A model generated the notes under the pieces. The model was not told where the DNA came from. It was given only the letters and a program-made list of their open reading frames with translations, and made no database searches. Shown piece after piece: positions 3,266 through 30,184 of a stretch of DNA of 64,000 bases. The stretch spans positions 1,608 to 65,607 of IMG/VR virus record IMGVR_UViG_3300037466_001900; one strand, given 5' to 3'. A program made the translations under genes and the position numbers. The number at the start of each line of letters is the position of its first letter. The first letter of the stretch is position 1. Source of the stretch: a virus. Its lineage: Duplodnaviria; Caudoviricetes.

Positions 3266-6200
3266 ATGCCCACAACTGACGGTACAGTCGAAATCAAGAT
3301 TACTGGTTCGGTTGATCCGTCAGTTGCGGCTGCAGCAAACGAGGCCAAAGCCTCTCTCGATGCGGTTGGCGCGTCGGCCTCAGGGCTTCGCCCAGGCTTC
3401 GACGCCAGCGCCGCCTCCCTAAAACAGCTGATCGCCCAGACGGGTAGCTTTGCTGCTGCCCAGAAAGCCCTAGCTGCGGCCAACGGGGATATGGGCGCAG
3501 CCTTGCTGGCAACTAGGGTTGCACAGGAGGTAGAGACCGAAGCAGTCAAAGCCGGGACTGCAGCAACAATCAATAGCCGGGCTGCATATGAGTCGTTAGT
3601 TCTGATCCACGAAGCCATGCAGGGTAGGTTTACTCGCATGGCCGGCTCGTCGATGATTCTGACCCAGGCATTGGCTGGCCAGGCTGCGACCACGAAGTTT
3701 GTCCAGGCAGCTTTGAGTTCTACTGGCCTTACAATTATTGGCACCACCATTGCCATGGGCACGCTATTAGCGGCTACCATCTCGATGGAGAGTGAGGAGA
3801 AAAAGTTAACAGCAACCTCTATTGGCCTCGGAGCTCAGTCAGGGCTCACTGCCAAGCAGTTGAAGGACATTGGTGAGTCAGCCGATAGTTCAACCCAGTC
3901 TATTCGCGAGACCACCAAGGCCGCTGAAGCTTTTGCTGCTGTTGGGTTGCACAACGCTGATACGGTTAAAACCCTATCGAATAGCATTGAGTCTTACTCA
4001 CAGCTCATTGGGGTTAAGTTTGCGGATGCTCAAAAGAAGTTAGCATCAGCGATGAAAGACCCTGTTAAAGGGGCTCAGGAACTTCATGACGAACTAGGCA
4101 TCCTAAGTGGTGACCAGCTGGAACAGATCCAGCGGCTTGACGCCATTGGGGCCAAGGACCAAGCTGTTGCCATTATCACCCAAGCCCTGACAGAGAGGGT
4201 GAATGAGGCTAAGGACGCAGGAGTTGGTCTGCGGGGTGAATTCGGTCAGCTAGTCGACGTCCTAAGTAACGTCTATAACTGGATCGGCCAGGTCAGTGAA
4301 GGGTTCGGCCGAGAAGCTGAAACACTTCTAGAGGACCTCATACCTGCTCTGCATCAGGCGGCTCAAGCCCACAGGGATGTAGCGGCTGCAGCTTCCCAGC
4401 AGGCCCAGAACGAAGCGGCTCTCAACGACATCTCAGCCAAAGGGGCTAAGGCGTTTGCCAACACTCCCGAAGGTCGCAAAGAGAAAGACCTCATCGACCT
4501 GGCTGGCCAGCGTATGGCCGCGGAAGATGCTTACACCTTAGCCAAGGCTCGGGGCGACACCGTAGGCATGGCCCAGGCGAAAGAAGCTGTTGACGCTTAT
4601 ACTCACGCAATCACGTCCTACAGGACCGAGGCTGAGAAGAAAGTTGCAATCGACAAAATTGACGTCCAGCTTGCTGCGGCCAAGCACGCACACAATAAGG
4701 AATTAGTAGCAGATCTTACTCAGCAGAAGGCTTTAATAGCTGAGTCAGGTAAGATCGAAACCCAGGCTGATGCCAACGCTCTGGCTAAAGGGGCGGGTGA
4801 CGTCGGAGGCGCTAGGACATTCCCTAAAGGAGGAGGTAAAGGCCCCTCAATTGTGTCCCAGTGGGAAGAGCAGCTTCACGCTATGGAGGTGGCCAGCAAT
4901 GACTTCTTCGACGACCAGACATCTACTGAGCTGAAATTCTGGCAAAGCAAGCTGGGGTTAGTCAAGGCGGGTTCCAAAGAGTGGCTCGACGTCCAGACGA
5001 AAGTATACGACGCCCAGAAGACCCTTGCCCATCGCGACTACGACGAACATATCGCCGATCTAAATGACCGGATCGAGGCCGATCGGAACGACTTCACCAA
5101 GTTCAAGGCCGACTGGCAGGAAAAGCTCGACTTCATCAAGTCAAAGTACAAGGAAGAGTCGACCGAGTACAAGAACGCCCATCGTCAAATGGAGGCCGAG
5201 ACCCGCCAGTTCGAGGACCGGCTGATCCAGGAGGAGCTCAGCGGCAACAATAAGATGGTTGCGGCCCTCAAGAAGAACCTCCAAGAACAACAGCAGATCC
5301 GCCAAGAGTATACCAAGCTTCGCGAAGAGCAGATAGCTGACAAAGCCGGCAACTCCCCGTTTGGCGACATCTCGGCTATTACCCAGATCGCCCGGCTCCA
5401 CCACCAGATGGCGCAGCAGGAGATCCAGGACGCCCAGACTGCATACAATGCCGAGAACGCCCTGCGTGCCCAGGGAGTGGCCGATGCCTTGCGGGTCTAT
5501 GGTCAGGATGACCAGCGGTATAAGGCGGCTCTGGCGGACAAACTCAATGCTGATAAGCAATATGAGAACCAGAAGCGCCAGCTTGAGCTAAAGGCCCTTA
5601 ACCAGCAGCTTCAGGATCTTCAACGCCTAAAGGCCGCTTATCATCAGTATATTGATGGCACCGTATCTGCTACGGTTTCGGGCTTTGCTAACATGGCTGA
5701 CGGAACCGGCACCTTCCGAGAAGCGGTGATTGGGGTTTACCAGTCAATTAAGTCGGCGGCGATACAAGCTATTAGCACAATCGTCGAAAACTGGATTGTC
5801 AACCTTCTAGTCCAGAAGACGGCTTCTAACACCGCAGCGGCCGCTCAGGTGGCTTCCTATGCGGGTATAGCCGGAGCGGCCGGTGTGGCCTCCTGGGCGG
5901 CGGCTCCGTGGCCAATTGACGCGGGGGCTCCAGGGTTTGGTGCAGCTATGTCGGCAGCAGCCGCAGCGTTTGCCCCGTTAGCATCTCTTGACAAGGGCAC
6001 TAACTTCTTACCTCAAGATATGCTGGTCCAGGCTCACCAGGGCGAACGTGTCGTTCCGAGGGCAGACAATACTAAATTGATCCAGCTGGTTAGCCAGGCT
6101 GCGAACAACAACACTCCTAACGGTGGGAATGGTGATGTCCATTTGCACTTCCACGGGGACATTATTGGCTCTCGGGCTGGAATGGAACAGTGGGCGAGAC

Positions 6201-8312: not shown

Positions 8313-11300
8313 TGGGCGGCTCATCCTCCAACACGGTAACAGTCGGCTCTAAGTTAGCTGGCATGTCGATCCAGACTTCGCTTCTGGGTCAGGTCATTCC
8401 GATCGGGTGGGGTCGAGGCAAGCTTAGCTGTAACTTAATCGACTACTTGAACTTCCGGGCGATCCCCCACACTACAACTACTACTACAGGTGGCGGCAAG
8501 GGTGGTGGGTCTTCGTCGACTAGCACGACTGACTACACCTACACTGCAGATGTGATAATGTCTCTCTGCGATGCAGGGCCCAACGGAATTGTTGGGGTTA
8601 ACCGAGTGTGGAAAGACTCAGGCAAGTTCGATCCTCCAAACGCTTTGAGCCAGGTAGGCCTTAGCCTCATGCGGGGGACTTCGACCCAGACGGCTTGGCC
8701 TTATCTAGTAAGCGCGGCCCCAACACATGCACTCGCCTATCGGAACATGGCTTACGTCTACGCCCAAGCCTATGATCTAGGGTCAGAAGGTGTAGTAGCC
8801 AATCACAGCTTTGAAGTCGATTTCCCCATCCAGTTCAATCCTGGAGGGTCGGTCTACGACGCGGCTCCTAAGGACGTCCTTACCGACTTCCTGACGAACA
8901 CGAATGCGGGTGTCCCCAACTGGCCTTCGTCTGCTAATGGCGACTGGACCAACTGGAACAACTATTGCCTGGCGAACAACCTGCTGCTATCACCTGTCCT
9001 AGATACGGGGACTGCAGCTAACCAGTTTATTCAGCGGTTACTCGACCAGACTCATAGCGACTGTTTTTTCTCTGAGGGCCTCCTAAAGGTCGTTCCTCTT
9101 GGGGACACAACGGCTACTGGCAACGGAGTTACATGGAACCCAGACCTAACCCCGATTGTTGACCTGACTGAAGATGACTTCCTGGGCGAGGTCCAGCTCG
9201 AGGTCATGGACCAAACGGATGCCTATAACCGCGTCCAGATCCAGTTCCCCGACCGGACGAACGAGTACAACACCGGCGTAGCAGTTGCCGACGATCTAGA
9301 CAACATAATCCAGTTTGGCCTCCGCCAGCAAGATCCTCAGACGTTCAATGACATCTGCGACCCCCAGATCGCAATGACCGCGGCTCATCTGTGGCTTAAT
9401 CGCCAGCTTTACATTCGTGATCAATACAGCTTCGACCTGCCCGAAGATGTGGCTGTTTTTCTCGAGCCTCGCGACTACGTCACGCTGACCACTACAGTCG
9501 ACGGTATGCAGCTTGATCGGAAACTAGTCTCAATCCTTTCGATCGATGAGTCTGAAGATGGTCATAACGTTTTTCATATCGTTGCTGAGGGTGTGCCGGG
9601 TCATACTGCTAATGCAGCTCTTTATTCCGCTCATTCTGCTACCGGTTTCTCTCCAGATCAGAATGCTGACCCTGGTGACGTTGCTACCCCATTCATTTTC
9701 AATGTTCCTGAGAGCCTTGTTTCAAGTGTAACTACTCTCGAGGTTGGAGCCGCGGTTGCAGGCGTCAATGATAACTGGGGTGGATGCTTTGTCTTCCTCA
9801 GCTTTGACGGAACCAACTACAGCCAGGTCGGGCAGATTACTGGTCCCTCGAGATACGGCGGGCTTACGGCTACCTTAGCTAGCCATGCCGATCCCGACAC
9901 AACCAATACTCTTTCAGTCGATTTGTCGATTAGTAAGGGTGCCTTGGGGACATATTCGCATACGACAGCTGACCAGAATGCTACTCTATGCCTAATTCGG
10001 GATGCGGGTGGTTCCTATGAGCTGATCAGTTATGGGACTGCGACTCTAACCAGCGCAAACCATTATGACCTCACATATCTCCGCCGCGCCCAGTTCGGAA
10101 GCACTCTAGGGGCACACACTAATACGGCTACGTTTGCTCGACTTGACCAGGCGATCTTCACCTTGCCGTTCGACGTGACGAAGCTGGGGCAGACAGTTTA
10201 CATCAAGTTCCAGAGCTACAACATCTATCATCGGGCTCTTCAAGACCTTTCGGTCTGTACTGCTTATTCATTTGTCCTGGCTAAGGCTGGGGCGGTTCCG
10301 GATATGCCTACTGGGCTTGCTCTAACCAGCGGGTCGTCGTGGGTTGGTCCAAGCATGGACATCATCTGCGACCCAGCAAACAGGGCGACAAGCTACAGGT
10401 TCGACATCTACAAGTCTGATGGGACCACGCTTCTTCGGCAAATCACATCGTCGACCCCAAGTGCCAGCTATACCACGGACCAGGCCGCGCTTGATGGAGC
10501 TCAACGATCCTATAAGCTAGCGGTCACTGCAATCAACGACTCTGGACCTAGTACAACTACATCCCAGATTAGCGTCAGCAACTCGGCCCCAGCAACTTTA
10601 TCTAGCCCAAGTACTACTGGTGGCACCTATACCGGGCAGGTAACTGCAACGGCCAGTTCGGACCCGGACCTAGCAGGCTATATTGTCTTCTTCAGCCCGA
10701 CTAGCGGGTTCAATCCCAAGACTACAGGTGGTGTCGTTGTTGGTGGGACCTTGCCACTGAACATATACGGCTTGGCTGCTGGGACCTATTATTGCAGGAT
10801 AGCGGCTTACGATCCTTGGACAAATGACCCCGACCAGCTGAACCTTAGCACCGAGTTGAACTTTGTAATTAGTACGGGTGGTGGTGCATCACCTAGTGGA
10901 GGGGGCACAGACGGAGGATACGACGGTAATTGCGTTGTCGAAGATACTCCGATCCTAATGGCCAAGCGCGATTGGCGGTGGTTCTGGCTTCGTCGTTGCC
11001 GCGGCGCGGAGAAGCCTATGAACCAGTGCCGACCTGGAATTGACTGGGTTTGGACCCGTCACGAGGCAACAGGGAAATGGGGTGCTTACCAGATCGACGC
11101 TCTTGAATTCGTTCTAGCTCTAGCATACCGGGCTTCTGGGTTCCCAGATGCAACCGCCCAGCACCACTTCTCACCTGGCGATGGAGACATACGCTGGATC
11201 AGGATGGGGTATTTAGGCGATATTTTGGGGATGCGCATAGTCGGGAAGATGCGAGTTAAAGATGCCCATACCTACGTAGCGGCTGGGGTCCTCAGCCATA

Positions 11301-16934: not shown

Positions 16935-17039
16935 CTGCGTGTGCTCCGTGGACGGAGACGACGGGTGCGGGCTCCGCCTATGGTCCGATACCCCGGGAAA
17001 GCCCGTGATTTTCCTTAGTCCAGGGAAAACTTCAGATTA

Positions 17040-17498
17040 CTATGCCCTTAGCTGAAGCTGCTCCTTGGGTAATTGGATAAGCTCCCTTCCCGCCCTACGC
17101 CACCATTCGATCGCATCCGGATGTGGGTAGATTTCCCGGCAGACAATTCGTTTCGCCGAGGTGCCTAGCAAAAGCTTGACACAGGACAGGCACGGAGAGG
17201 CGGTCACGTAAACCGTGTCGACCTTCCACGGGTCGCTGAGCAGCAAGCAGGCGTTCTGCTCTGCATGTATGGCCTCGCACTTGTCGAGGCCTTCGCCCGA
17301 CCCATACGTTGCGCCTGGGCAAGGTTCGCCTTCCGAACAGTGGGGGCGACCGCTAGCCGGCCCATTGTAGCCGGTAGCCATGATCCTCCCCCTAGCATCA
17401 ACTATAACGCACCCAACCTGGCGTCGGGGGCATGTGCCGCGCTGTGCAATGGTCTCGGCGACCCTAAGCCACGTTTCATCCCTCGAAGGTCTTGTCAT
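17040..17498 (-). CDS. dCMP deaminase
   Basis: HAE and PCLSC Zn motifs; CPRRQVGCVIV; ATGYNG. Confidence 0.92.
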   Translation of the reverse strand: MTRPSRDETWLRVAETIAQRGTCPRRQVGCVIVDARGRIMATGYNGPASGRPHCSEGEPCPGATYGSGEGLDKCEAIHAEQNACLLLSDPWKVDTVYVTASPCLSCVKLLLGTSAKRIVCREIYPHPDAIEWWRRAGRELIQLPKEQLQLRA

Positions 17499-17689
17499 AC
17501 CTCAATCCCAGAAGAGTTTTGCATACTCCTATACTCCTCAAAAAGCAGCCTAGGATTAGACCACCCACTGGACCACCATTGACGGGGTTCAGCCTCTGAG
17601 TAAGGGTTCATAGAATGCGAAAACCCGTCCAGATAGGCGTGTTGACCAGCAACGTAGAACTTCTTTCTCTCTTCTTCATTATAGGTCAT
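17495..17689 (-). CDS. Rmf/CrpP-fold-like small protein
   Basis: Start re-placed at ATG 17689; GQHAYLDG...NPY...WWSSGW pattern. Confidence 0.5.
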   Translation of the reverse strand: MTYNEEERKKFYVAGQHAYLDGFSHSMNPYSEAEPRQWWSSGWSNPRLLFEEYRSMQNSSGIEV

Positions 17690-19074
17690 ACTAAACCTCC
17701 TTTCAGCTCCGGGAACAAGGGACACTCGGCTCGGTGCCAACACATCTTGCAGGCACCCGCCTGGTTCGAATAGCCGCCGAGACGGCAGAAGTCCTCTTTG
17801 GCCTTAGTGACCTTGGGATTGGGCTTCAAGACCCTGTGGCCCGTGGTTATGAACGTGTCGCGATTTATGAACGCCTGGACTTGCTCAGCTACGTAGGTCG
17901 TGAACTGCAGGGGCATCGACTTGCCGGTCTGCTTGATCCCCCGCTGGCCATCTGAATTATAGGGTTCCCAGACTTCCCGACCAGGCCCCTCTTCGTCATG
18001 GTGGAACAGGAAGTCGTCGGGGAAACCCTGGATCGCCGCCCGTTCCCGCACAGACAGTGGAGAGCGCCGGATGGGGTGAATGGGATTGTAGCCGCCTGAG
18101 AGAACTGGACAGAAGCCCTCCCACTTGGGATTAGTCGTTCCAGGGCGAACCTTCTGTTCACCTGCCGGCGAATAGTACTTCAGGTTCTTACCCCAGTCAC
18201 CCGTCTTGAACAATTCGCTGAGTTCACCCCAGCTAGACCGTTCGCCATACCATCGCATATTGACGTATCGGCCTGGAACATATGTAGGGTCGACAAACGC
18301 GTGATTTGGAACACCGCCGGCGGGCACATCGAGGAAACGCCCGATAACATCCTTGAGAACCAAGCCATGCTCTTTCTCTCCTGGCACAAAAACGAAACCT
18401 TCGGATTTCTTGGCCCCGATGATGAACATCCGGTTTCGGTGCTTCTGGATATTGCCGTAACCCCAGTTGCTGATCCACTCAGGGAAGAGATCGTAGTCAG
18501 GAAGCATCCTGACATATTCGCTCATGGGCAATGGGATAAAACTATCGGGCAGGTCGTCCATCAAGAAGAAGCGCGGCTGGAGCTCGGCTACCAGTTTAAG
18601 GAAGAGCGGGAGGTCCGAGACATCCTCTCCTCGCGTTGCCTGATACTCCCCGTTACCTGCAACGACTGAATGTGAGAGCGAGGAATAGCGTCCACACTCA
18701 GGATGACCAAGGGCCAGGTCGATAGACCCTGGCAACATGTTCTTGGGAACATCATCCAGTCCTCGAGCATTGAAGGCACCGGGAAAGTAATTACAGAAAG
18801 TCGAGTCACCGGTCTGTCTCCTGAACCTATAGTAGTCGCGCCACTCGATATTGCCAACGACCTTATAGCCCAAGAGGTGCGGTCCGATCAGCATCGAGCC
18901 GACGCCGCTGGTTATTCCGAACGCCGTGAGCGGCCGCATGCTGGGCAGTTCGCCGACTGGCTCCTGGAACACTGGCATTCGCTTATACTTGGCCATAGTC
19001 GGCTTATCGAGGAGCCCGAACCGCTCCTCGATCGAGTCGGCCTTTCTATGTTGCCACGTTGCTGATTTAGACAT
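17686..19074 (-). CDS. Divergent C5-cytosine DNA methyltransferase-like enzyme
   Basis: Motifs in order: I (TSGVGS), IV (HPECGRYS, Cys127), VI (DDL for ENV), VIII (QKHRNRMFIIG), IX (REraAIQGFPDDF), X (QTGKSMP, Lys385); C-terminal Cys cluster. Confidence 0.85.
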   Translation of the reverse strand: MSKSATWQHRKADSIEERFGLLDKPTMAKYKRMPVFQEPVGELPSMRPLTAFGITSGVGSMLIGPHLLGYKVVGNIEWRDYYRFRRQTGDSTFCNYFPGAFNARGLDDVPKNMLPGSIDLALGHPECGRYSSLSHSVVAGNGEYQATRGEDVSDLPLFLKLVAELQPRFFLMDDLPDSFIPLPMSEYVRMLPDYDLFPEWISNWGYGNIQKHRNRMFIIGAKKSEGFVFVPGEKEHGLVLKDVIGRFLDVPAGGVPNHAFVDPTYVPGRYVNMRWYGERSSWGELSELFKTGDWGKNLKYYSPAGEQKVRPGTTNPKWEGFCPVLSGGYNPIHPIRRSPLSVRERAAIQGFPDDFLFHHDEEGPGREVWEPYNSDGQRGIKQTGKSMPLQFTTYVAEQVQAFINRDTFITTGHRVLKPNPKVTKAKEDFCRLGGYSNQAGACKMCWHRAECPLFPELKGGLV

Positions 19075-19330: not shown

Positions 19331-19511
19331 GGACCTTTATGTAGACAAACCAGATAGGGGACAGAATAATGCAGGTCACAAAGGTCAGAGCCAGGACGAA
19401 CCAATTATGAGGTTCTCCTAGGATCTGGTCTTTGTGCTCTATAAAGTCAAAGACTGTAAGAGCGAACCCGCAAACTATCCAGGCAAATGCTATGGAGGAC
19501 AACAACGTCAT
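19317..19511 (-). CDS. Small two-TM membrane protein
   Basis: Two hydrophobic helices; ATGA overlap. Confidence 0.55.
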   Translation of the reverse strand: MTLLSSIAFAWIVCGFALTVFDFIEHKDQILGEPHNWFVLALTFVTCIILSPIWFVYIKVHGRG

Positions 19512-20224
19512 TGGTTTGCTCCATTCGTTTCGAGATCACCCTGATGGACGTAGCGAATATGAGCATGGTCCTTCACCAAGTCGTGGTGGTCGGGCGGCAT
19601 CCAGCCTTCGGGCTTCACTACGTCGAACGTCGAACCCCGCTTGGACTGGTCCGCGGTCTCGGCCCGGACCTTGGCCATGTTAGCCGCCTGAACGCGCTTC
19701 CACGCTTCATGGAAGATTGTTGGTCCAAACTGGAGATAGGCAGCTCCCAGGACGACGTAGGTTAGATCGACGAGAGCGTCGAGCTGCTGATGAAGCCCCA
19801 TTGCGATCCTGCGATGGTCAGGCTTCCCGTCGTCCGAGGTGAGCGCCTCAACTAAGCCTTCCTGCTCGGTCTCCCACTCCTCGAACTCCTCTCGAATGAA
19901 CTTGCTCCGGAAGTCGAAGAGTTCAGGCTCCAAGATCCTGGGCTTACCAACATACTCAAGGCCGAACTTCTGGTGGAATGCAGCAATGTCCAGCATGAGG
20001 TGCGGGGCTTCGGCTCCAGTAACGTGAAGGCCTTTCTTGATCATCTCGGACTGGGCCTTCAGGACCTCGGTCACGTACGACATGGGACCTGGCCCAAGCC
20101 TCCTACCCGCAGCGTTGGCCGCCGAGACCATCATTCGGACTACTCCCTCAGCTTCCTCGAGCTTGAACTCGAAGACAACTTCTTCACCTTGCTCATCAGC
20201 AACCTTAAGTTCTTCCGTAATCAT
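19508..20224 (-). CDS. MazG-like/PRA-PH nucleotide pyrophosphohydrolase (dUTPase/dCTPase-like)
   Basis: FHQKFG, IREEFEE, DALVDLTYVVLG, VQAANMAKV, VVKPEGW.PPD motifs. Confidence 0.85.
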   Translation of the reverse strand: MITEELKVADEQGEEVVFEFKLEEAEGVVRMMVSAANAAGRRLGPGPMSYVTEVLKAQSEMIKKGLHVTGAEAPHLMLDIAAFHQKFGLEYVGKPRILEPELFDFRSKFIREEFEEWETEQEGLVEALTSDDGKPDHRRIAMGLHQQLDALVDLTYVVLGAAYLQFGPTIFHEAWKRVQAANMAKVRAETADQSKRGSTFDVVKPEGWMPPDHHDLVKDHAHIRYVHQGDLETNGANQ

Positions 20225-21537
20225 TGTTCCACCTCCGATATGAATGCGTCTACTAACTCAATCCTGTATCCTATGCCGCCGGTCTTCACCGCCTCGGTCT
20301 TCAGCGGGTGCTTCGCTCGGTTTATGATCCGATCGGGGACGACACCTTTGAAAGCACGCTTTAACGCCTGCTTCTGGGTGCGCATCTCTCGGGGGAGCGA
20401 GAGCCCGTGGGCAATGACCGCCGGCGCCAAGTAAGGCGACCTAAGCTCGATTGTCTCCTTCATCATCACTCGATCGAGCCGTGGCAAGTGGTAATATGGA
20501 AGCTCGCAGAAAACATCCGACCATTGACTATCGTATTCCGCAGCCCGTCTATAGCCGCCAAACACTTCGTCTGCGCCATCCCCAGTCAAGCACACATTGT
20601 AACCCGCGGCCGATACCGCCTTAGCCAGTTGGACCTGTGGAACCAGGGAACCCAGGTCGAGAGGAGCCTGCATAATCCGAACGGCCTCCCTCATGGTTGG
20701 GGGCCGAGTGAAGGATGAGAAGTTATCGAGAAGCGTGACCTCGGGTGGTAGGAATTCACCTTCACCATTCTCAACCGAGAAAGCGTCGACTTCCCTGCCC
20801 AGTATATCCTTTAGGGTGTAATAGATGATCGACGAGTCAAGGCCGCCCGATAGAAGGAGGGCGACAGGAAGCTCGCCGATAAGCCGGTTCTCGATCGCCT
20901 GGGTAACTGCATCACGGAGGTATCCAGCCTGGGGCACCATCCACCACTTCCAATAGGTCTCTTCATGGATACCTATATCACTAACCGTGATCCTGGTGCC
21001 AGGCCGCATCTGAACGATGCCTTCATAAGGTGTTCGACCTGAGTAGTCGTATCCCCACTTAATGCAGTTGGCAAGGTAGGTCTGGTCAAAAGCCGGCCGA
21101 CGCTGAAGCATGAACATAGGTTCTAGCTCGGAACAGAAGATCCTGTACTTCGGCCAGAAATACATCGGCTTGATGCCGAGGTGGTCAGTGTAAACCGTAG
21201 CCCCATATTTCGTAACTGAGGCTGCGGCCCAGAACCCGTCCGTGTTATGGAAAACGGCTTCGTCGACTAGAGCGGAAAGCAAGTGCATCTGCTCTCCAGC
21301 CTGGTGGTTGAAGAATTCCCCTACAAAGCCGTAAAGGCTAGATCGCCCTTCAAAAGGCTGGTTAGCATCTTCCGTCCTATCCTGAATAGCCAACCGAACG
21401 TGAGCGAAAGTCCAGCCAGCAAAATTCTTGGCTGAAACATGACCCTTCTCTCCATCGCCCCTATGGCTCATAGCAGCCAAGGCGAGCTCAATCTGTTCAG
21501 GCAGATATGTTGACGGGGTTAGGAGGACGCCGCACAT
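20221..21537 (-). CDS. Asparagine-synthetase-like glutamine amidotransferase (Ntn GATase plus PP-loop), compact 438 aa
   Basis: N-terminal MCG, RLAIQD, GEFFN, D.LGIKP, SGGLDSS, GDGADEVFGGY, ELRSPYL. Confidence 0.88.
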   Translation of the reverse strand: MCGVLLTPSTYLPEQIELALAAMSHRGDGEKGHVSAKNFAGWTFAHVRLAIQDRTEDANQPFEGRSSLYGFVGEFFNHQAGEQMHLLSALVDEAVFHNTDGFWAAASVTKYGATVYTDHLGIKPMYFWPKYRIFCSELEPMFMLQRRPAFDQTYLANCIKWGYDYSGRTPYEGIVQMRPGTRITVSDIGIHEETYWKWWMVPQAGYLRDAVTQAIENRLIGELPVALLLSGGLDSSIIYYTLKDILGREVDAFSVENGEGEFLPPEVTLLDNFSSFTRPPTMREAVRIMQAPLDLGSLVPQVQLAKAVSAAGYNVCLTGDGADEVFGGYRRAAEYDSQWSDVFCELPYYHLPRLDRVMMKETIELRSPYLAPAVIAHGLSLPREMRTQKQALKRAFKGVVPDRIINRAKHPLKTEAVKTGGIGYRIELVDAFISEVEQ

Positions 21538-22064
21538 TTAATTTTCTCCAACAAGTTCTCATAGCTGTCACTTGGCCATGAGTAATGCACAATAGGCACT
21601 AGGCCCGAGAGGGAGCTAATCCTTCGGTCATACGCATTCACGATCGCCGGGTAATTCTTGAGGACCCAGTCGAGGTGGTCCTGAGACTTGTGGGACTTTA
21701 CCGCCATGGAGATGTGCGAGTGCATGAACTTCGCCGACCCCGCTTTGCAGTAGACCAACACCAGGCCGAGCTCCTGGACCTCCCTGTCCAATCGGTATAG
21801 CGGCTCGTAAAGGTCCCGGCCCATCAGAGGCCCATAAACGGTTTCGCTGATCTGAGGTAAGCGATCAACCAGGACGGTCTCACCCCGATCGGCCCGCCAT
21901 TTACAGTCCCATATGATCTGGAGCTTGGCATCCCACGCCTCCCGATCCTTGGGAGGTCCCCCACTGTGGCTTACCTCAACGTCAAAGGTCTCGGCCAGCT
22001 TGGCTAGAAGGGTCGACTTCCCCGACCCGTCCGGGCCTTCAACTACGATCATCCTTCGCTGCAT
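21519..22064 (-). CDS. P-loop deoxynucleoside monophosphate kinase
   Basis: IVVEGPDGSGKST Walker A, LVDR motif; start re-placed at ATG 22064. Confidence 0.82.
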   Translation of the reverse strand: MQRRMIVVEGPDGSGKSTLLAKLAETFDVEVSHSGGPPKDREAWDAKLQIIWDCKWRADRGETVLVDRLPQISETVYGPLMGRDLYEPLYRLDREVQELGLVLVYCKAGSAKFMHSHISMAVKSHKSQDHLDWVLKNYPAIVNAYDRRISSLSGLVPIVHYSWPSDSYENLLEKIKCAASS

Positions 22065-22830
22065 CTTCCCTCCCCTTCTCCCATGCGGTGACTGCCACCG
22101 GAGCAACTAACGCAGCCAGGTTTTTCATAGCCCTGGCGTAGACCTGGATTTCATATTGTGCGTGTGGGTCATCCCGGAGTGTCAAGAACCGGAAGAGGTT
22201 CAACAAGTTGACCGTAGCAAACATGTGACTGTAGGTATTGACCGGCAGGACCGATCGAGCGAGCTCCCGGGGCCAGCCGTTTAAAAGTAGCCGGCGATAA
22301 AGATCGAAGGCATCTTCGCAGTGTTCGCGAAGCATCTCAACCTCCCGCTCTCGAGCCTGGAGGTTATCAAGGTTTTCGCCTCCTACCTCCCTGGCCTGTT
22401 TGTTGCTCGTCGACTGACGCCCAATCAAGGCCGGATTAGGGACATAGAATTCAGTCGGCAATTCCCGATAGCGGGCCGACAGCTCATTGTATCCCCAAGT
22501 GCGGTGACGATGCCACTGGCGAAAGACAAAGATGGGGGCCTTCACCTCAAAGGTCAGGGTGACCGCCTCGAATGGGGATGTGTGGCTATGTTTCCACAGA
22601 TAGTTGATTAACCGCTGATCGCTACCTTCGTCTTCGCCGGCTCGCCAGGCAGCGTCGTACGATACGCGGGCCGCTCGAACGATTGAGATGTCACCACCCA
22701 TGAAATCGACGAGCCGGACGAAGCCGTAGTCAAGGCAATTGATGACCCCCGTCGATCGGTTTTTCTGGAATACCGATCCGGCACCTTCTGATAGGTCGTG
22801 ATAGCGGCTTTCCGCTTCTTGGTCTGTCAT
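22039..22830 (-). CDS. thyX: Flavin-dependent thymidylate synthase
   Basis: RHRTWGYNELSAR signature, HTSPFE, AQYEIQ.YA. Confidence 0.95.
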   Translation of the reverse strand: MTDQEAESRYHDLSEGAGSVFQKNRSTGVINCLDYGFVRLVDFMGGDISIVRAARVSYDAAWRAGEDEGSDQRLINYLWKHSHTSPFEAVTLTFEVKAPIFVFRQWHRHRTWGYNELSARYRELPTEFYVPNPALIGRQSTSNKQAREVGGENLDNLQAREREVEMLREHCEDAFDLYRRLLLNGWPRELARSVLPVNTYSHMFATVNLLNLFRFLTLRDDPHAQYEIQVYARAMKNLAALVAPVAVTAWEKGREDAAKDDRS

Positions 22831-23036: not shown

Positions 23037-24327
23037 TCGCGTACTCCTTTACCATGGAAAGGACGGTGGCCTGGGAAATCTTCTTCGCCTCCAAAACTTC
23101 TAAGAGGAGGTCGTCCACCGTATCAACTGCTCGGAGGAAATGAAACACCGGCAGAGTAATTTGTCCTTGGCGGTCGATCCGCGCTCGGGTCTGGGCCATC
23201 TGCTCGAATGAGAACGAGGCCGAATAGATAACCATCGTGTGCGAGCCATACTGCAAATTAAGCCCATGCCCGCCCGATTGGGGATGGAGGAACAACAACG
23301 GTATTTCCTTGTTGTCCCACTCCTTCTGGGTCCAGCCCTTCTCCAAAGAAACCCCGTGAGGGAATTTCTTCTTTAAGGCAGCAAGTTCGTGCTGGAAGTG
23401 GTAGACCACAATGACGGGTGAACCAGTTCCTTCCAGGATCATCTCAAGGGCATCTAGCTTCCCAGTATGAATTTGCTTCACTTCATGGTCGTCGTCGTAT
23501 ACAAAGCCGCTAGCAACTTGTCGCAACTTCATTAGCGCGGCCGCAGCATTAACAGCGGTGATAGTCTTCTCCTTGCCCAGGTCGACAAAGGCCCGGCGCT
23601 CCATCTCCTTGTAGATCTTCCTAGCGGCTAGAGGAAGCTCAATGTCGATGATGTTCTCGATCGGTTTTTCCGCCGAGGCCTCCAGCTCAACTCGGAAGAT
23701 CAAGTCACTGATAATCTTGGTGACCTTTTCAGTTGCCCCCTCTCGAGGTCCGAACTTGTAGCCCATATAGTCGAGCTGCTCGAAAAACTTAGACTTGAAC
23801 CGAAAGAAGGCTGTGTCGAGGCGTTGGCCAAGATCCAGGATGAAGATCTGGCTCCAGAGGTCCATTAGTGAGTTAGGGTTTGGCGTCCCTGTATAGATGT
23901 TCCTCCGCTCAAAGTGCTTCAGGTATTTACGCAGCTTCTTGAACCGTTTAGTCGACGGGTTCTTGAACATGGAAGACTCATCGATCGCCAGGACCTTAAA
24001 GGTCCGCGCTTCGAGGGCTTCGGGCAGGAGCTCGGGGTTCACCAAGTAAATGTCCGCTTCGGCTTCCAGGGCCTCACTCCGTTCGCGGGGCGACCCTCTA
24101 ACAAGGGAGAAGGTGAGCCCCTTGGTCATATCCCATTTCTTAGCTTCGGTCTCCCACACGGTTTCGATGACCATGATCGGGCCAACCAGGATGATGGGCT
24201 TAGGAAAGTCTACGAACGCGTGGAGGGCGATCGCGGTCTTGCCCAGCCCCATGTCAATGAAGAGACCAGCGTGGGGGTGGGCCTTGAGATATTCTACCCC
24301 TTCAACCTGATAGTCTCGGAGCTTCAT
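23020..24327 (-). CDS. SNF2-family helicase
   Basis: LRDYQ, DMGLGKT, DESS, TGTP, HPQSGGHGLNLQ, QTRARIDRQGQ. Confidence 0.92.
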   Translation of the reverse strand: MKLRDYQVEGVEYLKAHPHAGLFIDMGLGKTAIALHAFVDFPKPIILVGPIMVIETVWETEAKKWDMTKGLTFSLVRGSPRERSEALEAEADIYLVNPELLPEALEARTFKVLAIDESSMFKNPSTKRFKKLRKYLKHFERRNIYTGTPNPNSLMDLWSQIFILDLGQRLDTAFFRFKSKFFEQLDYMGYKFGPREGATEKVTKIISDLIFRVELEASAEKPIENIIDIELPLAARKIYKEMERRAFVDLGKEKTITAVNAAAALMKLRQVASGFVYDDDHEVKQIHTGKLDALEMILEGTGSPVIVVYHFQHELAALKKKFPHGVSLEKGWTQKEWDNKEIPLLFLHPQSGGHGLNLQYGSHTMVIYSASFSFEQMAQTRARIDRQGQITLPVFHFLRAVDTVDDLLLEVLEAKKISQATVLSMVKEYANARRT

Positions 24328-24758
24328 GGGTTGAGCTCCTTAACCCCTACTAGGATAGAAGGAGGGAGAGGGATATGTTGGTGAAGGGGCCGCCAAAGAT
24401 GGAGACAGAAAGGGTAGTTGTTTATATACTCTTTGACTGGGTGTAACTGCATCGCTACCTCATCGGGAAAGAAGAATAGGTCCTTGATGAAGTTCATTTC
24501 TTCCCAGGTTGGAGTTCGGTAAGGTAGCGACACACTCACGTGGTCCCAGTTAGCTCCGGCTTCATTGCGACCCCAGACCACCCCGCCTTTGCTGGCTATT
24601 ACTCGGAGCCCTACCTGTGGTACTTGCCGGCTAACTGGGTTTCTAGATGAGAAGGGGACGACGAAAGCTCCTGCATAATCACGTATGTCTGTAGGCACTT
24701 CGCCCATAGGGTGGGGAATACGAAACTTATCGAAACGGTTGTCGCTAAAGCTACGCAT
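24324..24758 (-). CDS. Conserved phage protein (DUF7694-like)
   Basis: WDHVSVS...PTWEEM..IKDLFF...CLHLW. Confidence 0.6.
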   Translation of the reverse strand: MRSFSDNRFDKFRIPHPMGEVPTDIRDYAGAFVVPFSSRNPVSRQVPQVGLRVIASKGGVVWGRNEAGANWDHVSVSLPYRTPTWEEMNFIKDLFFFPDEVAMQLHPVKEYINNYPFCLHLWRPLHQHIPLPPSILVGVKELNP

Positions 24759-25051
24759 TATTCTGCCTCCAGTTCCAAGACCCTACGGCGACACAGCTTG
24801 ATCACCTGCTCACACTGGTCTATATCGAACAGGATTATGTGGCAATCGCTAGGAGGTATCTTCATCCTGCGGCCGAGCCAGCGATATGCCCTCTTCCTGG
24901 TCATGTGCCCATTCTTCCACAGGGCATCAAACTGCTGGTGAGCACGAGCCCGGGCCTTGGCCAGGGGCGACCCAGGCGTGGCACTAAATCCGCATGGGTC
25001 GTTCCGATCGGCCATTAGGCGATCTAGCAGTTCTTCGTCGTGTTCGTTCAT
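24758..25051 (-). CDS. DUF3268-like protein (C-terminal part)
   Basis: RARAHQQFDALWK..MTRKRAY.WL...HI..FDIDQC; start re-placed at ATG 25051. Confidence 0.6.
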   Translation of the reverse strand: MNEHDEELLDRLMADRNDPCGFSATPGSPLAKARARAHQQFDALWKNGHMTRKRAYRWLGRRMKIPPSDCHIILFDIDQCEQVIKLCRRRVLELEAE

Positions 25052-25437
25052 TGTCCACTCTCGAATAGCAGTTGGATCAACATATTGGTCAGGCCGTCGT
25101 TCTGTTTCTGGATCTCGTCTATCGCTCCCCGCTGTCCAGGAAGCCACGAAGGCATAAGCAACAGGGCGAGCTCGTCCTGCTTGGTGAAGCACATCCATGA
25201 TCGCTGGACCGTTTTCGTCACCACATTTGCTCGCATGATTGGCTCGAACTTCAGGTCGACGATCCGCATGATCTCTTCAATAGGCATCCTATCATGCACT
25301 TTCCTAGGGGTCACCATAGATGGAACCACTAAGCGATACCGGCAGCCGTGGTCTTCAATATCTCGCTCGGTAAAGCCCGGAATGTTCACCACCGTGATTG
25401 GCTCCAGGGTAGCGTCGTCGTAAATCACGAACCTCAT
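25048..25437 (-). CDS. Hypothetical protein
   Basis: ATGA-coupled ORF. Confidence 0.6.
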   Translation of the reverse strand: MRFVIYDDATLEPITVVNIPGFTERDIEDHGCRYRLVVPSMVTPRKVHDRMPIEEIMRIVDLKFEPIMRANVVTKTVQRSWMCFTKQDELALLLMPSWLPGQRGAIDEIQKQNDGLTNMLIQLLFESGQ

Positions 25438-25670
25438 GGCAGCAACTCCGCGGTGAAATAATAATTGGACTTACCTTCTACGGGCTGAACACTTTCTGGG
25501 TCGAAGCCACAAGAGCTTCCGAGGGCCCGCCATACACGCATAGCATTCTCATACGGTGTCCCAAAGAGGTAATTGCCTTTACCATCCCACATAGCTGGAG
25601 TTGGTTTTGACGCATCCAGTAACTTCTGGTATTGCTCTTCGGTCAACTGGAATTCTTTCCTCATCGCCAC
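25434..25670 (-). CDS. Hypothetical protein
   Basis: Coupled ORF. Confidence 0.55.
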   Translation of the reverse strand: MAMRKEFQLTEEQYQKLLDASKPTPAMWDGKGNYLFGTPYENAMRVWRALGSSCGFDPESVQPVEGKSNYYFTAELLP

Positions 25671-26164
25671 ACCTCCAAAGGCGTTGAATAGGATAGCATC
25701 AGCGGATGCCTGGGGCTTCCATCATCGCACGTGCCCCAGCACATGAGCTGCTTGCCTCGCTGATGGACCAGGGCGACGACCTCGTCAACCCTGTAACGAA
25801 GGTTAGCAGGAACCTTGTCGATCCGACCCCAGCCGGCAATGATCAGCTCCGCTCGCCCGATCGCGGACAAGAGATAGTTGTTGCAGCTATGTCCGACAGG
25901 ATCGGAAACCTTAGCCAGTTCACGGACATCAGTTGCCCTATAGGCAAAGAGGTTGGCGACTAGCCAATGGTTCACCCCCAGCCGATCGCCGAAGCCATAT
26001 AGTTTTCGAATGGACTGGTCATCAACACGTTCGTCGGCCGTGGATGGGTTGACCCCTATCCACAGAGCCGTGACCCCCTCCCGTGCGAATGACCGGCCCA
26101 GGAGCCAGCGATAATGACCACACTTGCTTATGTCGGCGAAGGTGAAGAAGGGAATGTCAGTCAA
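25661..26164 (-). CDS. DUF1643 family protein
   Basis: CGHYRWLL.R, IGVNPSTAD..DD.SI, NLFAYRATD, PRHPL; TTG start after GAAGGAG. Confidence 0.85.
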   Translation of the reverse strand: MTDIPFFTFADISKCGHYRWLLGRSFAREGVTALWIGVNPSTADERVDDQSIRKLYGFGDRLGVNHWLVANLFAYRATDVRELAKVSDPVGHSCNNYLLSAIGRAELIIAGWGRIDKVPANLRYRVDEVVALVHQRGKQLMCWGTCDDGSPRHPLMLSYSTPLEVWR

Positions 26165-26366
26165 CTGGTACTCCTTCTCGTTCAAGCTTTTCTTCCAGGG
26201 CGGCAACCATCCAGTCCTGCTGGGATATGCCCAACCTCCAAGCCGCCGATCGGACCTGGGCACTTAGCGTCAGCGGGACGTAGACTTGTTTAGCTTCTAA
26301 CCCGAGATGGCCACGGATACCCCTCTGGTTGTTCCTGACAGGTCGGTATCCTCCATGGTGGCTCAT
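26157..26366 (-). CDS. Ribbon-helix-helix-like DNA-binding protein
   Basis: VYVP..L...VR.AA...GISQQDWMVAALEEKL. Confidence 0.55.
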   Translation of the reverse strand: MSHHGGYRPVRNNQRGIRGHLGLEAKQVYVPLTLSAQVRSAAWRLGISQQDWMVAALEEKLEREGVPVD

Positions 26367-28668: not shown

Positions 28669-29068
28669 TGCTTGAGCCTTCCTGTGATCTGGCGCGGAGG
28701 GCGGCGGCGGTTAGAGCGAGGGCGGGAATTGCGGCACGCACTTCCTTGCCTTCGGTAAACAGGTGACGGACTATCGCCTCAGCATGATCGGCGTAGGCAT
28801 CAACGCCCCACACCATCCCCTCCGGCACAAGTGTCATGGCTGCGTCTAGGAACGCTTCGCAAGCGAGCTTATCCGTGAACAACCCAAAACGGTGGTTCCA
28901 CTCTACCCATCGCCTAGTCGTCTGAAGGCGCAGCACGTTGGAATACATTCTGGCTGGCGGCGGGTCACAAAGCCGGAAAGCTTCTTCCAGCACTTCTGAT
29001 TGCTGCTCAGCCATCGCTTTCTCGCAGCGCTCGGCCAACTCCAACAGCTTATCACTTGTCATATTCAT
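28658..29068 (-). CDS. Hypothetical protein (Ea22-like accessory)
   Basis: LLELAERCE...LDAAMTLVPEG...PALALTAAALRAR. Confidence 0.6.
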   Translation of the reverse strand: MNMTSDKLLELAERCEKAMAEQQSEVLEEAFRLCDPPPARMYSNVLRLQTTRRWVEWNHRFGLFTDKLACEAFLDAAMTLVPEGMVWGVDAYADHAEAIVRHLFTEGKEVRAAIPALALTAAALRARSQEGSSNVR

Positions 29069-29919
29069 CGCATGCTGTTCCTTAAGTTCTCTCGGTCCTG
29101 CCTGAACATGTGGAGCGAGGTGATATGCATCCGAAAAGTCCCGGGCTGAACCTCGCCCCAGGTCTCCCGATCAATATTCTGGCATTGGTGGAGGACCCAG
29201 AGCAGAAGCCGAATAGTCAGATAGACGTCGTCCCGGAAGTGCCGAATGTAGTCGCACGACCGCATTGGATAGACCAGGTGGAGGAAGTCGCCAAAGTTGC
29301 CCATCGGCCGGCGGATGATATGATAGCCCAGGGTGCAGGGAACCCGCTTGCCCATTCTGGCCGCGGCCGTGTCCTCGGGGAAGAAGATTGGGAGATAGGC
29401 CTGGCGGGTCAGAGGATCGTCGACCAAAGTTTGCACCAGGTCACTTAAGTCCCCGACACCAAACCGGATGCCCCTAGCCTTGAGAGGCAGTTTCAGAAAC
29501 TCATCATCGTCGCTGGGCAGTCGTCCATCCACAGTCATGCCGGCATACTTCGGCCAGTATCGTTCGGCATAGCTATGATCGTACTGCGGCACATTCTCCC
29601 CCTCGCGGAGATGTGCCGCAGCCGACCGGGCGTATGGCCATATCTTCCAGGTCTCGCCTGGATTGATTGGCTCGCCGCTGACCCGTTCTTCTTCAAAGTG
29701 GCGATCGGCCCAGGGTAGGTTTGGCCGGATCACATCGGCAATGGTTCCAAGATCCTCCTCCCCTCGAAGATCGAGAGTAAAGGACCGGTTAAAGAGCTCG
29801 ACCATGGGTTGTGGAGCGTCCGCCGACTGCCACTTTTTAGCAGCCACTTCTGGCGCATCCAAGAACTCCTTGTTCAGGTGGTCAGTCAGCCGTTTGAACT
29901 GGTCGGTCAATGTATACAT
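29065..29919 (-). CDS. Thymidylate synthase homolog, dCMP hydroxymethylase/methylase-type
   Basis: RQAY, VPCT (catalytic Cys), RSCDYIRHFRDD with Asp at the E. coli TS N177-equivalent position; start at ATG 29919 after GAGGAG. Confidence 0.82.
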   Translation of the reverse strand: MYTLTDQFKRLTDHLNKEFLDAPEVAAKKWQSADAPQPMVELFNRSFTLDLRGEEDLGTIADVIRPNLPWADRHFEEERVSGEPINPGETWKIWPYARSAAAHLREGENVPQYDHSYAERYWPKYAGMTVDGRLPSDDDEFLKLPLKARGIRFGVGDLSDLVQTLVDDPLTRQAYLPIFFPEDTAAARMGKRVPCTLGYHIIRRPMGNFGDFLHLVYPMRSCDYIRHFRDDVYLTIRLLLWVLHQCQNIDRETWGEVQPGTFRMHITSLHMFRQDRENLRNSMR

Positions 29920-30184
29920 CGATGAACTCCTCAACCCCTCTTTTGCCATGAATTACCTCTGCATTAAACCCCATCTTCTGAAGAATTTTGATAAAGGCTA
30001 ACTGGACCCCTGTGGCCTTCTCCCCGTCCTTCTTGAGTTCACGAAAGAATACCCGCCCTGGAGGAAGCAGAATGAGACGATCGGGAATGCCACGATAGAG
30101 AGCGGCCGGCAACTTGAAACATTTGCCGCCGGCGCGCTCTATCGCCTTCCTAAGATCTTTCTCGTGGTCGGCTTCCTTGACCAT
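29882..30184 (-). CDS. VRR-NUC nuclease
   Basis: GIPDRLILLPPGRVFFRELKK...Q. Confidence 0.88.
   Translation of the reverse strand: MVKEADHEKDLRKAIERAGGKCFKLPAALYRGIPDRLILLPPGRVFFRELKKDGEKATGVQLAFIKILQKMGFNAEVIHGKRGVEEFIDVYIDRPVQTAD

Follow-up and report, generated by a model that had tools for sequence, protein, structure and literature searches.

A compact AsnB-like amidotransferase of uncultured phages, tied to a cytosine-type ThyA kit and a lysine-variant C5-methyltransferase homolog, with a probable role in cytosine modification

What does an asparagine-synthetase-like enzyme amidate when its gene lies in a nucleotide operon of a phage? The question is raised by gene P0001, found in a 64,000-nt stretch of DNA (the window; positions 1,608 to 65,607 of record IMGVR_UViG_3300037466_001900) that covers almost the entire length of an IMG/VR phage genome of 65.6 kb, which is complete and has direct repeats at its ends. 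An earlier note on this DNA had proposed that the substrate is a modified nucleotide or DNA base rather than aspartate. We conclude that P0001 is not a housekeeping asparagine synthetase, and that it probably acts in cytosine modification and not in asparagine synthesis. Tentatively, and at somewhat less than an even chance, we propose by analogy that P0001 may be a glutamine-dependent amidoligase similar to the phage enzyme CmoY, converting 5-carboxymethylcytosine to 5-carbamoylmethylcytosine in this phage. The gene is the following:

20221..21537, minus strand: P0001, compact AsnB-like glutamine amidotransferase/amidoligase, 438 aa, with a Cys2 glutaminase domain and a PP-loop synthetase domain.

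The P0001 protein begins with MCG, which places the nucleophile at Cys2, and carries the PP-loop SGGLDSS at residues 230-236; Pfam detects Asn_synthase (1.2e-33) together with GATase_6 and GATase_7. An AlphaFold2 model, built with 103 relatives as input, has a confident AsnB fold (predicted local distance difference test score, 96.5; predicted template modelling score, 0.94). The sequence, the Pfam matches and the model all bear out the claim of a complete N-terminal-nucleophile (Ntn) glutaminase and a PP-loop within only 438 aa. The top Protein Data Bank matches to the model are Escherichia coli AsnB (1CT9; Foldseek E-value 2.8e-21, template modelling score 0.74), human ASNS, TsnB9 (a hydroxyamidotransferase), beta-lactam synthetase and carbapenam synthetase; every characterised relative matched to P0001 amidates or cyclises a carboxylate. 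Cys2 is invariant across the 103 aligned family members, and the glutamine-binding residues Arg48, Glu74 and Asp100 show little or no variation. The position of AsnB Asn74, which we take to be an oxyanion-hole residue, is Val in P0001 and in most family members.

The overlaps with neighbouring genes were also as reported before. The ATG of P0001 at 21537 lies 19 nt within the upstream P-loop kinase open reading frame (ORF), whose stop codon occupies 21519-21521, and a GGAG is located 8 nt 5′ of this ATG. The TGA of P0001 overlaps the start of the MazG-like gene by 4 nt (ATGA).

Canonical AsnB is indeed longer, with 553 aa in E. coli, so that P0001 lacks ∼115 aa, largely from the C-terminal end; among the best cellular homologs the median is ∼630 aa. 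The short form is typical of the family, in which 204 relatives of 410-480 aa begin with MC or VC. After the Lys409 position P0001 has ∼29 aa, compared with ∼104 aa after Lys449 in AsnB. The family profile aligns with AsnB residues 18-166, 169-250 and 327-450; residues 251-326 are left unaligned (the corresponding stretch is shorter in P0001), and the AsnB tail of ∼100 C-terminal residues is absent from the alignment. The unaligned segment presumably holds Thr322, Thr323 and Arg325, which we take to be required for beta-aspartyl-AMP formation.

The family is large and viral. It comprises 192 clusters at 50% identity with E < 1e-30, 1,719 matches among 8,000 scored candidates from 90%-identity clusters, and at least 441 viral contigs in IMG/VR; a scan of viral contigs with the single protein as query gave nothing, and an alignment-based scan was required to find the family. 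The ESM Atlas clusters nearest to P0001 are 100% viral, and the best cellular matches, among one genome each from 185,579 species, show 23–30% identity. Against the 45 best cellular homologs the viral family is monophyletic (support 0.999) and is not nested among cellular asparagine synthetases; phylogeny against cellular AsnB had been suggested as a check, and its outcome favours a separate viral lineage. Among 50,697 phage records, megablast with the region as query yielded no match, and tblastn with P0001 found gp124 of Streptomyces phage TurkishDelight alone, with no family member in a cultured phage.

Could P0001 still be an auxiliary metabolic gene for plain asparagine synthesis? Its best family matches are TIGR01536 (the asparagine synthase equivalog) and E. 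coli AsnB, and its relatives are annotated as asparagine synthase in the source databases. Still, the scores fall far under the cut-offs (166.8 versus 267.1 bits for TIGR01536; 102.3 versus 499 bits for the AsnB model NF006949), the segment with the presumed beta-aspartyl-AMP residues does not align, and the virus-only, monophyletic clade is invariably linked to the cytosine kit described below, with a lysine-variant methyltransferase found only in its company. We regard asparagine synthesis as very improbable. A Gat-QueC or 7-deazaguanine function was rejected as well: the Pfam and NCBIfam matches are to Asn_synthase, GATase_6/7 and AsnB-related models and none is to QueC; no deazaguanine genes were seen among the scanned neighbours of P0001 in the window. 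The isoelectric point proved uninformative as a clue to DNA binding (5.6 for P0001 versus 5.8 for the DNA-acting SpCmoY).

The relevant neighbours of P0001 in the window are:

17040..17498, minus strand: P0274, deoxycytidine monophosphate (dCMP) deaminase.
17686..19074, minus strand: P0006, variant C5-cytosine methyltransferase homolog, 462 aa, with GHPEC in motif IV (Cys127), MDDL in motif VI, GK in motif X (Lys385) and a four-cysteine (Cys4) end.
19508..20224, minus strand: P0002, MazG/PRA-PH/dimeric-dUTPase-type nucleotide pyrophosphatase, whose start shares ATGA with the P0001 stop.
21519..22106, minus strand: P0003, P-loop deoxynucleoside monophosphate (thymidylate-type) kinase, whose 3′ end overlaps the P0001 start; its translation probably begins at an ATG within the ORF.
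22039..22830, minus strand: P0004, bona fide ThyX thymidylate synthase (TIGR02170, 180 bits versus a cut-off of 87.9), additional to the ThyA homolog.
29065..29949, minus strand: P0273, divergent ThyA homolog, 294 aa, with Cys205 at the C146, Asp233 at the D169, Asp241 at the N177 and Arg202 at the L143 position.

The minus-strand operon runs in the order SNF2 helicase, ThyX, kinase, P0001, pyrophosphatase, two small ORFs, P0006 and dCMP deaminase. P0006 is thus in the same operon as P0001, 1.1 kb downstream, and the ThyA homolog lies 7.5 kb upstream. The description of P0001 as embedded among nucleotide genes holds for the kinase and pyrophosphatase next to it; the most informative partners turned out to be the ThyA homolog and the methyltransferase homolog.

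To compare gene neighbourhoods we used 80 viral AsnB-like loci and contigs of other assemblies, with all neighbouring proteins clustered. A ThyA homolog is present in 75 of the 75 AsnB-like loci that have >1.5 kb of upstream sequence; the nine loci in which it is missing have ≤225 bp upstream. The dCMP deaminase is found in 64 of 84 AsnB-like loci, and the MazG/dimeric-dUTPase-type pyrophosphatase and the kinase are also frequent. Judged by sequence, the ThyA homolog, pyrophosphatase, kinase and deaminase, along with a separate ThyX, make up a predicted T4-like precursor kit for modified cytosine. Two arrangements recur. In phages with PolA and SNF2, including the one in the window, the order is kinase, AsnB-like gene, pyrophosphatase and then methyltransferase; in phages with UvsX and DnaB, the ThyA homolog is followed by the AsnB-like gene (1-nt overlap) and then the deaminase.

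The converse association does not hold. Only five of the 80 best viral loci similar to P0273 have the AsnB-like gene and most show the bare kit, which rules out the idea that this ThyA homolog is specific to AsnB-like phages. It is also present in cultured phages of Brevundimonas, Pseudomonas, Serratia, Gordonia and Streptomyces, all lacking the AsnB-like gene. An AsnB-like gene lacking the kit was never observed in loci with upstream sequence. Since the kit occurs alone and the AsnB-like gene occurs only with the kit, the latter appears to be an accessory tailoring gene.

All members of the ThyA-homolog family have the catalytic Cys (C146), Asp169, Asp at the N177 position and Arg at the L143 position; the Arg is invariant in 73 of 73 aligned homologs from AsnB-like loci. 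Asp at N177 is the cytosine-specifying change of T4 gp42 and MilA. The L143 position is Leu in methyl-forming and Asp or Glu in hydroxymethyl-forming enzymes of the family (PMC13326640), and Arg is present there in no characterised ThyA-family enzyme named in the literature examined. From these two residues it follows that the product of the ThyA homolog should be some form of 5-substituted dCMP. The RVPC signature, which contains the Arg, retrieved >500 further viral contigs.

The pyrimidine enzymes suggest one further reaction, in which P0001 would aminate a ring carbonyl in the manner of GMP synthetase, adenylating the oxygen and displacing it with ammonia, for example to make the corresponding dCMP from a 5-substituted dUMP or dTMP. 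Chemistry of this type is performed by GuaA, TilS and ThiI, whose PP-loop domains are relatives of the AsnB C-domain; the gene lies amid pyrimidine enzymes that include dCMP deaminase and two Thy enzymes, and the G+C content of the phage, 53–61%, would imply a high demand for cytosine nucleotides. However, the AsnB-subfamily relatives all act on carboxylates, the reaction would oppose the co-encoded dCMP deaminase, and the ThyA homolog with its Asp177 already takes a cytosine-type substrate. This alternative seems to us quite improbable.

The second informative partner, P0006, departs from canonical C5-methyltransferases in a consistent manner. P0006 and its relatives retain the catalytic Cys and have HPEC in motif IV, MDD or MDN in place of ENV in motif VI, and G-K in place of G-N in motif X; homologs with this Lys are referred to as K-type. 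At the presumed SAM (S-adenosylmethionine)-binding positions they also have GxG in motif I, the motif II Glu (Glu77) and, in place of motif III, a DV pair. Lys385 aligns with Arg350 of SpCmoX and with an Arg of TurkishDelight gp123, where HhaI has Asn304. In crystallised SpCmoX, Arg350 contacts the carboxylate of carboxy-SAM, and an engineered Asn-to-Lys change at this motif X site (M.MpeI N374K, M.MedI N377K) confers carboxymethyl transfer (PMC12783734, PMC12015181). We predict from the sequence that P0006 is a carboxy-SAM-type transferase.

K-type homologs depend strictly on the AsnB-like gene: they co-occur with it in 13 of 13 cases in the first sets and in all 33 viral loci with upstream sequence. 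Among kit loci that lack the AsnB-like gene, a single methyltransferase was found, and it is of the canonical type. It was observed at L122:6800-8000 (IMGVR_UViG_3300026519_000029), between the pyrophosphatase and the ThyA homolog, with ENL and with Asn at motif X; its presence suggests that kit phages retain some cytosines whose C5 is free and that replacement is not always complete.

Several other features of the methyltransferase homologs were observed. A Cys4 motif, C-x11-13-C-x2-C-x5-C, ends the K-type homologs (C430, C442, C445 and C451 in P0006, window positions 17686-17800; also in L003, L004, L005, L007-L010 and L017); we take it to resemble the end of the Fe-S cluster loop in EndoIII/MutY-type DNA enzymes, and it could equally be a zinc ribbon. 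In L128/L202 (IMGVR_UViG_3300036766_000032) and L203 an intein-like insert of ∼250 aa stands right after the catalytic Cys of motif IV (HPEC/insert/SGSYS). Methylases of ∼300 aa fell into the cluster of P0006, probably because a fused protein linked them to it; the only one of these for which there is a Pfam record, in L005, is an N6/N4 methylase.

A precedent for such a gene couple is the phage trio CmoA, CmoX and CmoY of December 2025 (PMC12783734), which is the first description of carboxymethylcytosine and its amide ligase as far as the literature was searched. CmoY of Synechococcus phage S-B43, an AsnB synthetase-domain homolog, ligates glycine to 5-carboxymethylcytosine in DNA in an ATP-dependent reaction; a second CmoY cluster retains the glutaminase domain and was predicted to use ammonia, although its expression did not succeed (PMC12783734). 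The nearest relative of P0001 outside its family belongs to a similar set. TurkishDelight gp124 (466 aa) has a GATase and a synthetase domain like P0001 and scores 97 bits against it (E. coli AsnB, 47 bits), with 25% identity over 462 aa; the gp121-125 region encodes two ParB-like proteins, a CmoX-like protein (gp123; SPPC, Arg), gp124 and a CmoA-like protein.

From these associations we infer the substrate, the use of carboxy-SAM and the action on DNA. The Cys2 Ntn domain of P0001 would hydrolyse glutamine, and the PP-loop domain would adenylate a carboxyl on the C5 side chain of (deoxy)cytosine, with ATP going to AMP and pyrophosphate; tunnelled ammonia would then turn the acyl-adenylate into a carboxamide. 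Here the carboxyl would most likely come from a carboxymethyl group put on DNA by P0006 with host carboxy-SAM as the donor, a supply that published E. coli experiments show to be possible. The product would be 5-carbamoylmethylcytosine, with P0006 and P0001 forming a CmoX/CmoY-type couple. AsnB-family chemistry, the intact glutaminase, the basic residue of the partner and the strict dependence of the partner on the AsnB-like gene all fit this proposal.

A number of observations weigh against it. The main difficulty is a large clade that keeps the AsnB-like gene and its family-specific motifs and lacks the methyltransferase; the substrate there does not come from a P0006-type enzyme. This clade holds 56 of the 68 sequences of a quick tree and is nested (97% support), with the methyltransferase-linked members basal, and a complete 157-kb genome from it has no PF00145 match. 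The notion of the C5-methyltransferase as a universal partner was discarded on these grounds. A tension also exists with the kit itself, for full replacement of cytosine would leave no C5-H for carboxymethylation. No CmoA candidate (TIGR00740) was detected in the complete genome of the window or in five related records (one complete); CmoA is present in about three quarters of the published CmoX contigs (PMC12783734). The similarity of P0001 to SpCmoY is only remote (hhalign, 87% probability, E-value 3.9e-6). The CmoX motifs SPPC and ENV are absent from P0006, and P0001 has Val at the presumed oxyanion position of AsnB Asn74.

The methyltransferase-less clade bears directly on a different order of events, in which P0001 would tailor the product of the ThyA homolog before replication, amidating a carboxyl of the substituent or aminating an activated hydroxymethyl group; the kinase would then phosphorylate the nucleotide for incorporation into DNA, and the K-type methyltransferase would act later or in parallel. 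As this clade keeps all family-specific motifs, the substrate is probably of the same kind in phages with and without the methyltransferase, which points to the ThyA-homolog product as one source, or the only source. The synthetase motifs conserved in both kinds of clade, the ThyA homolog in every locus with upstream sequence and its 1-nt overlap with the AsnB-like gene in the largest clade are consistent with such tailoring. So are the translational coupling of P0001 to kinase and pyrophosphatase, the nested dependencies (the kit alone, the AsnB-like gene only with the kit, the K-type methyltransferase only with the AsnB-like gene) and the invariant Arg at the L143 site, unlike the Leu of methyl-forming or the Asp/Glu of hydroxymethyl-forming types (PMC13326640). 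On the other hand, carboxyl-bearing products are not known from any ThyA-family enzyme, nor is adenylation of an alcohol known from the AsnB family, and no modification has been described for the cultured phages with this ThyA homolog. The operon position does not discriminate, because a DNA-acting methyltransferase homolog is in the operon as well. Tailoring before replication seems to us somewhat less probable than the CmoY-like reaction.

The nested dependencies, from the kit through the AsnB-like gene to the K-type methyltransferase, fit a linear pathway and a pathway with two routes equally well. With two routes, the ThyA homolog (Arg143/Asp177) would make a carboxyl-bearing 5-substituted dCMP before replication, perhaps with glycine or a carboxylated one-carbon donor capturing the exocyclic methylene intermediate, the Lys-variant methyltransferase would carboxymethylate the remaining cytosines after replication, and P0001 would amidate both products with glutamine-derived ammonia. 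This scheme would account for the nested dependencies, for a basic residue near C5 in both transferases and for the survival of the amidotransferase in methyltransferase-less phages; we nevertheless judge it unlikely. The earlier proposal of a modified nucleotide or base as the substrate has gained partial support from the virus-only clade, the obligate dCMP-type ThyA kit, the coupled Lys-variant methyltransferase and the CmoY-like nearest relative; the observations are compatible with nucleotide as well as DNA, and with 5-carboxymethylcytosine as well as the ThyA-homolog product.

Some further observations concern the kit loci and the window. In many phages lacking the AsnB-like gene (L100:3173-5677 and 37 other ThyA-homolog loci), the kit is followed by a gene for a family-A DNA polymerase with a fused uracil-DNA glycosylase domain; a recent study reports fusions of this type in phages with thymidine-modified DNA (PMC13697223). 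In L026, from the methyltransferase-less clade, a phosphomannomutase, a cytidylyltransferase-like protein and a weak GT8 match (4445-5152, 8855-9295, 17036-17881) flank the ThyA-homolog/AsnB-like pair; these genes hint at additional glycosylation, although the clade as a whole does not conserve them. On the upstream side of the SNF2 helicase the window encodes DUF7694, a DUF3268 zinc-finger protein and a DUF1643 protein (24324-26263), and DUF1643 occupies the same relative place on the contig of a 62%-identical relative. A DNA polymerase comparison made for host assignment gave 36% identity at best and no host.

The general idea of an AsnB-like amide ligase completing a phage cytosine modification is already published. 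In the literature searched, neither the present family nor the Lys-variant methyltransferase lineage is described, and the same holds for any amidotransferase that accompanies a dCMP-type ThyA kit. Nothing relevant was found that connects dCMP hydroxymethylases or the cultured kit phages with an AsnB-like enzyme or a glutamine amidotransferase, and a search on the roles of AsnB residues likewise gave no result; according to the MetaGPA supplement, GATase_7 has no association with modified cytosine. What is added here is a large family of predicted amidotransferases of this sort, seen in uncultured phages only and belonging to a widespread cytosine-type ThyA kit, together with a natural methyltransferase lineage bearing the Asn-to-Lys change that is otherwise engineered to obtain carboxymethyltransferases. 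Phage DNA hypermodifications defeat restriction and CRISPR and are a source of enzymes for DNA labelling and sequencing chemistry. The small gene set around P0001 predicts a new DNA base, and the chance that the pathway leads to one is realistic; P0001 itself is a candidate soluble glutamine-dependent ligase.

Comparison with known systems places P0001 as follows. It resembles AsnB (1CT9) and human ASNS in its two-domain fold, in its N-terminal Cys nucleophile and glutamine-binding Arg/Glu/Asp, and in having the SGGxDS PP-loop, a GxGxDE loop and Lys409, the equivalent of Lys449. It differs from AsnB in having Val for Asn74, Asp for Glu348 and a replaced 251-326 segment, and in its scores below cut-off, its virus-only clade and its genomic context.

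A set of activities equivalent to the T4 hydroxymethylcytosine kit (gp56 dCTPase, gp42 dCMP hydroxymethylase, gp1 kinase, cd and td) surrounds P0001. At the L143 position P0273 has Arg in place of Asp/Glu, and tailoring, which in T4 is done by glycosyltransferases, is represented in the window by the genes for the amidotransferase and the variant methyltransferase.

P0001 and CmoY are both phage-encoded AsnB synthetase-domain homologs near a C5-methyltransferase homolog with a basic residue at the HhaI Asn304 site, and for both, by analogy, adenylation of a cytosine C5 side-chain carboxyl followed by amide formation is proposed; the glutamine-type CmoY cluster, like P0001, keeps the glutaminase domain. 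Unlike the CmoY system, that of P0001 encodes no CmoA, is always tied to the dCMP-type ThyA kit and includes a large clade without the methyltransferase. The partner of P0001 differs from CmoX in having Lys for Arg, HPEC for SPPC, MDD for ENV and an added Cys4 tail; with HPEC and Lys, the lineage would be missed by the published search rules (SPPC and Arg350). M.MpeI N374K and M.MedI N377K have Lys at the motif X Asn position, as do P0006 and all its relatives; these two are laboratory mutants of canonical CpG methyltransferases, whereas P0006 is natural and divergent in motifs IV and VI as well.

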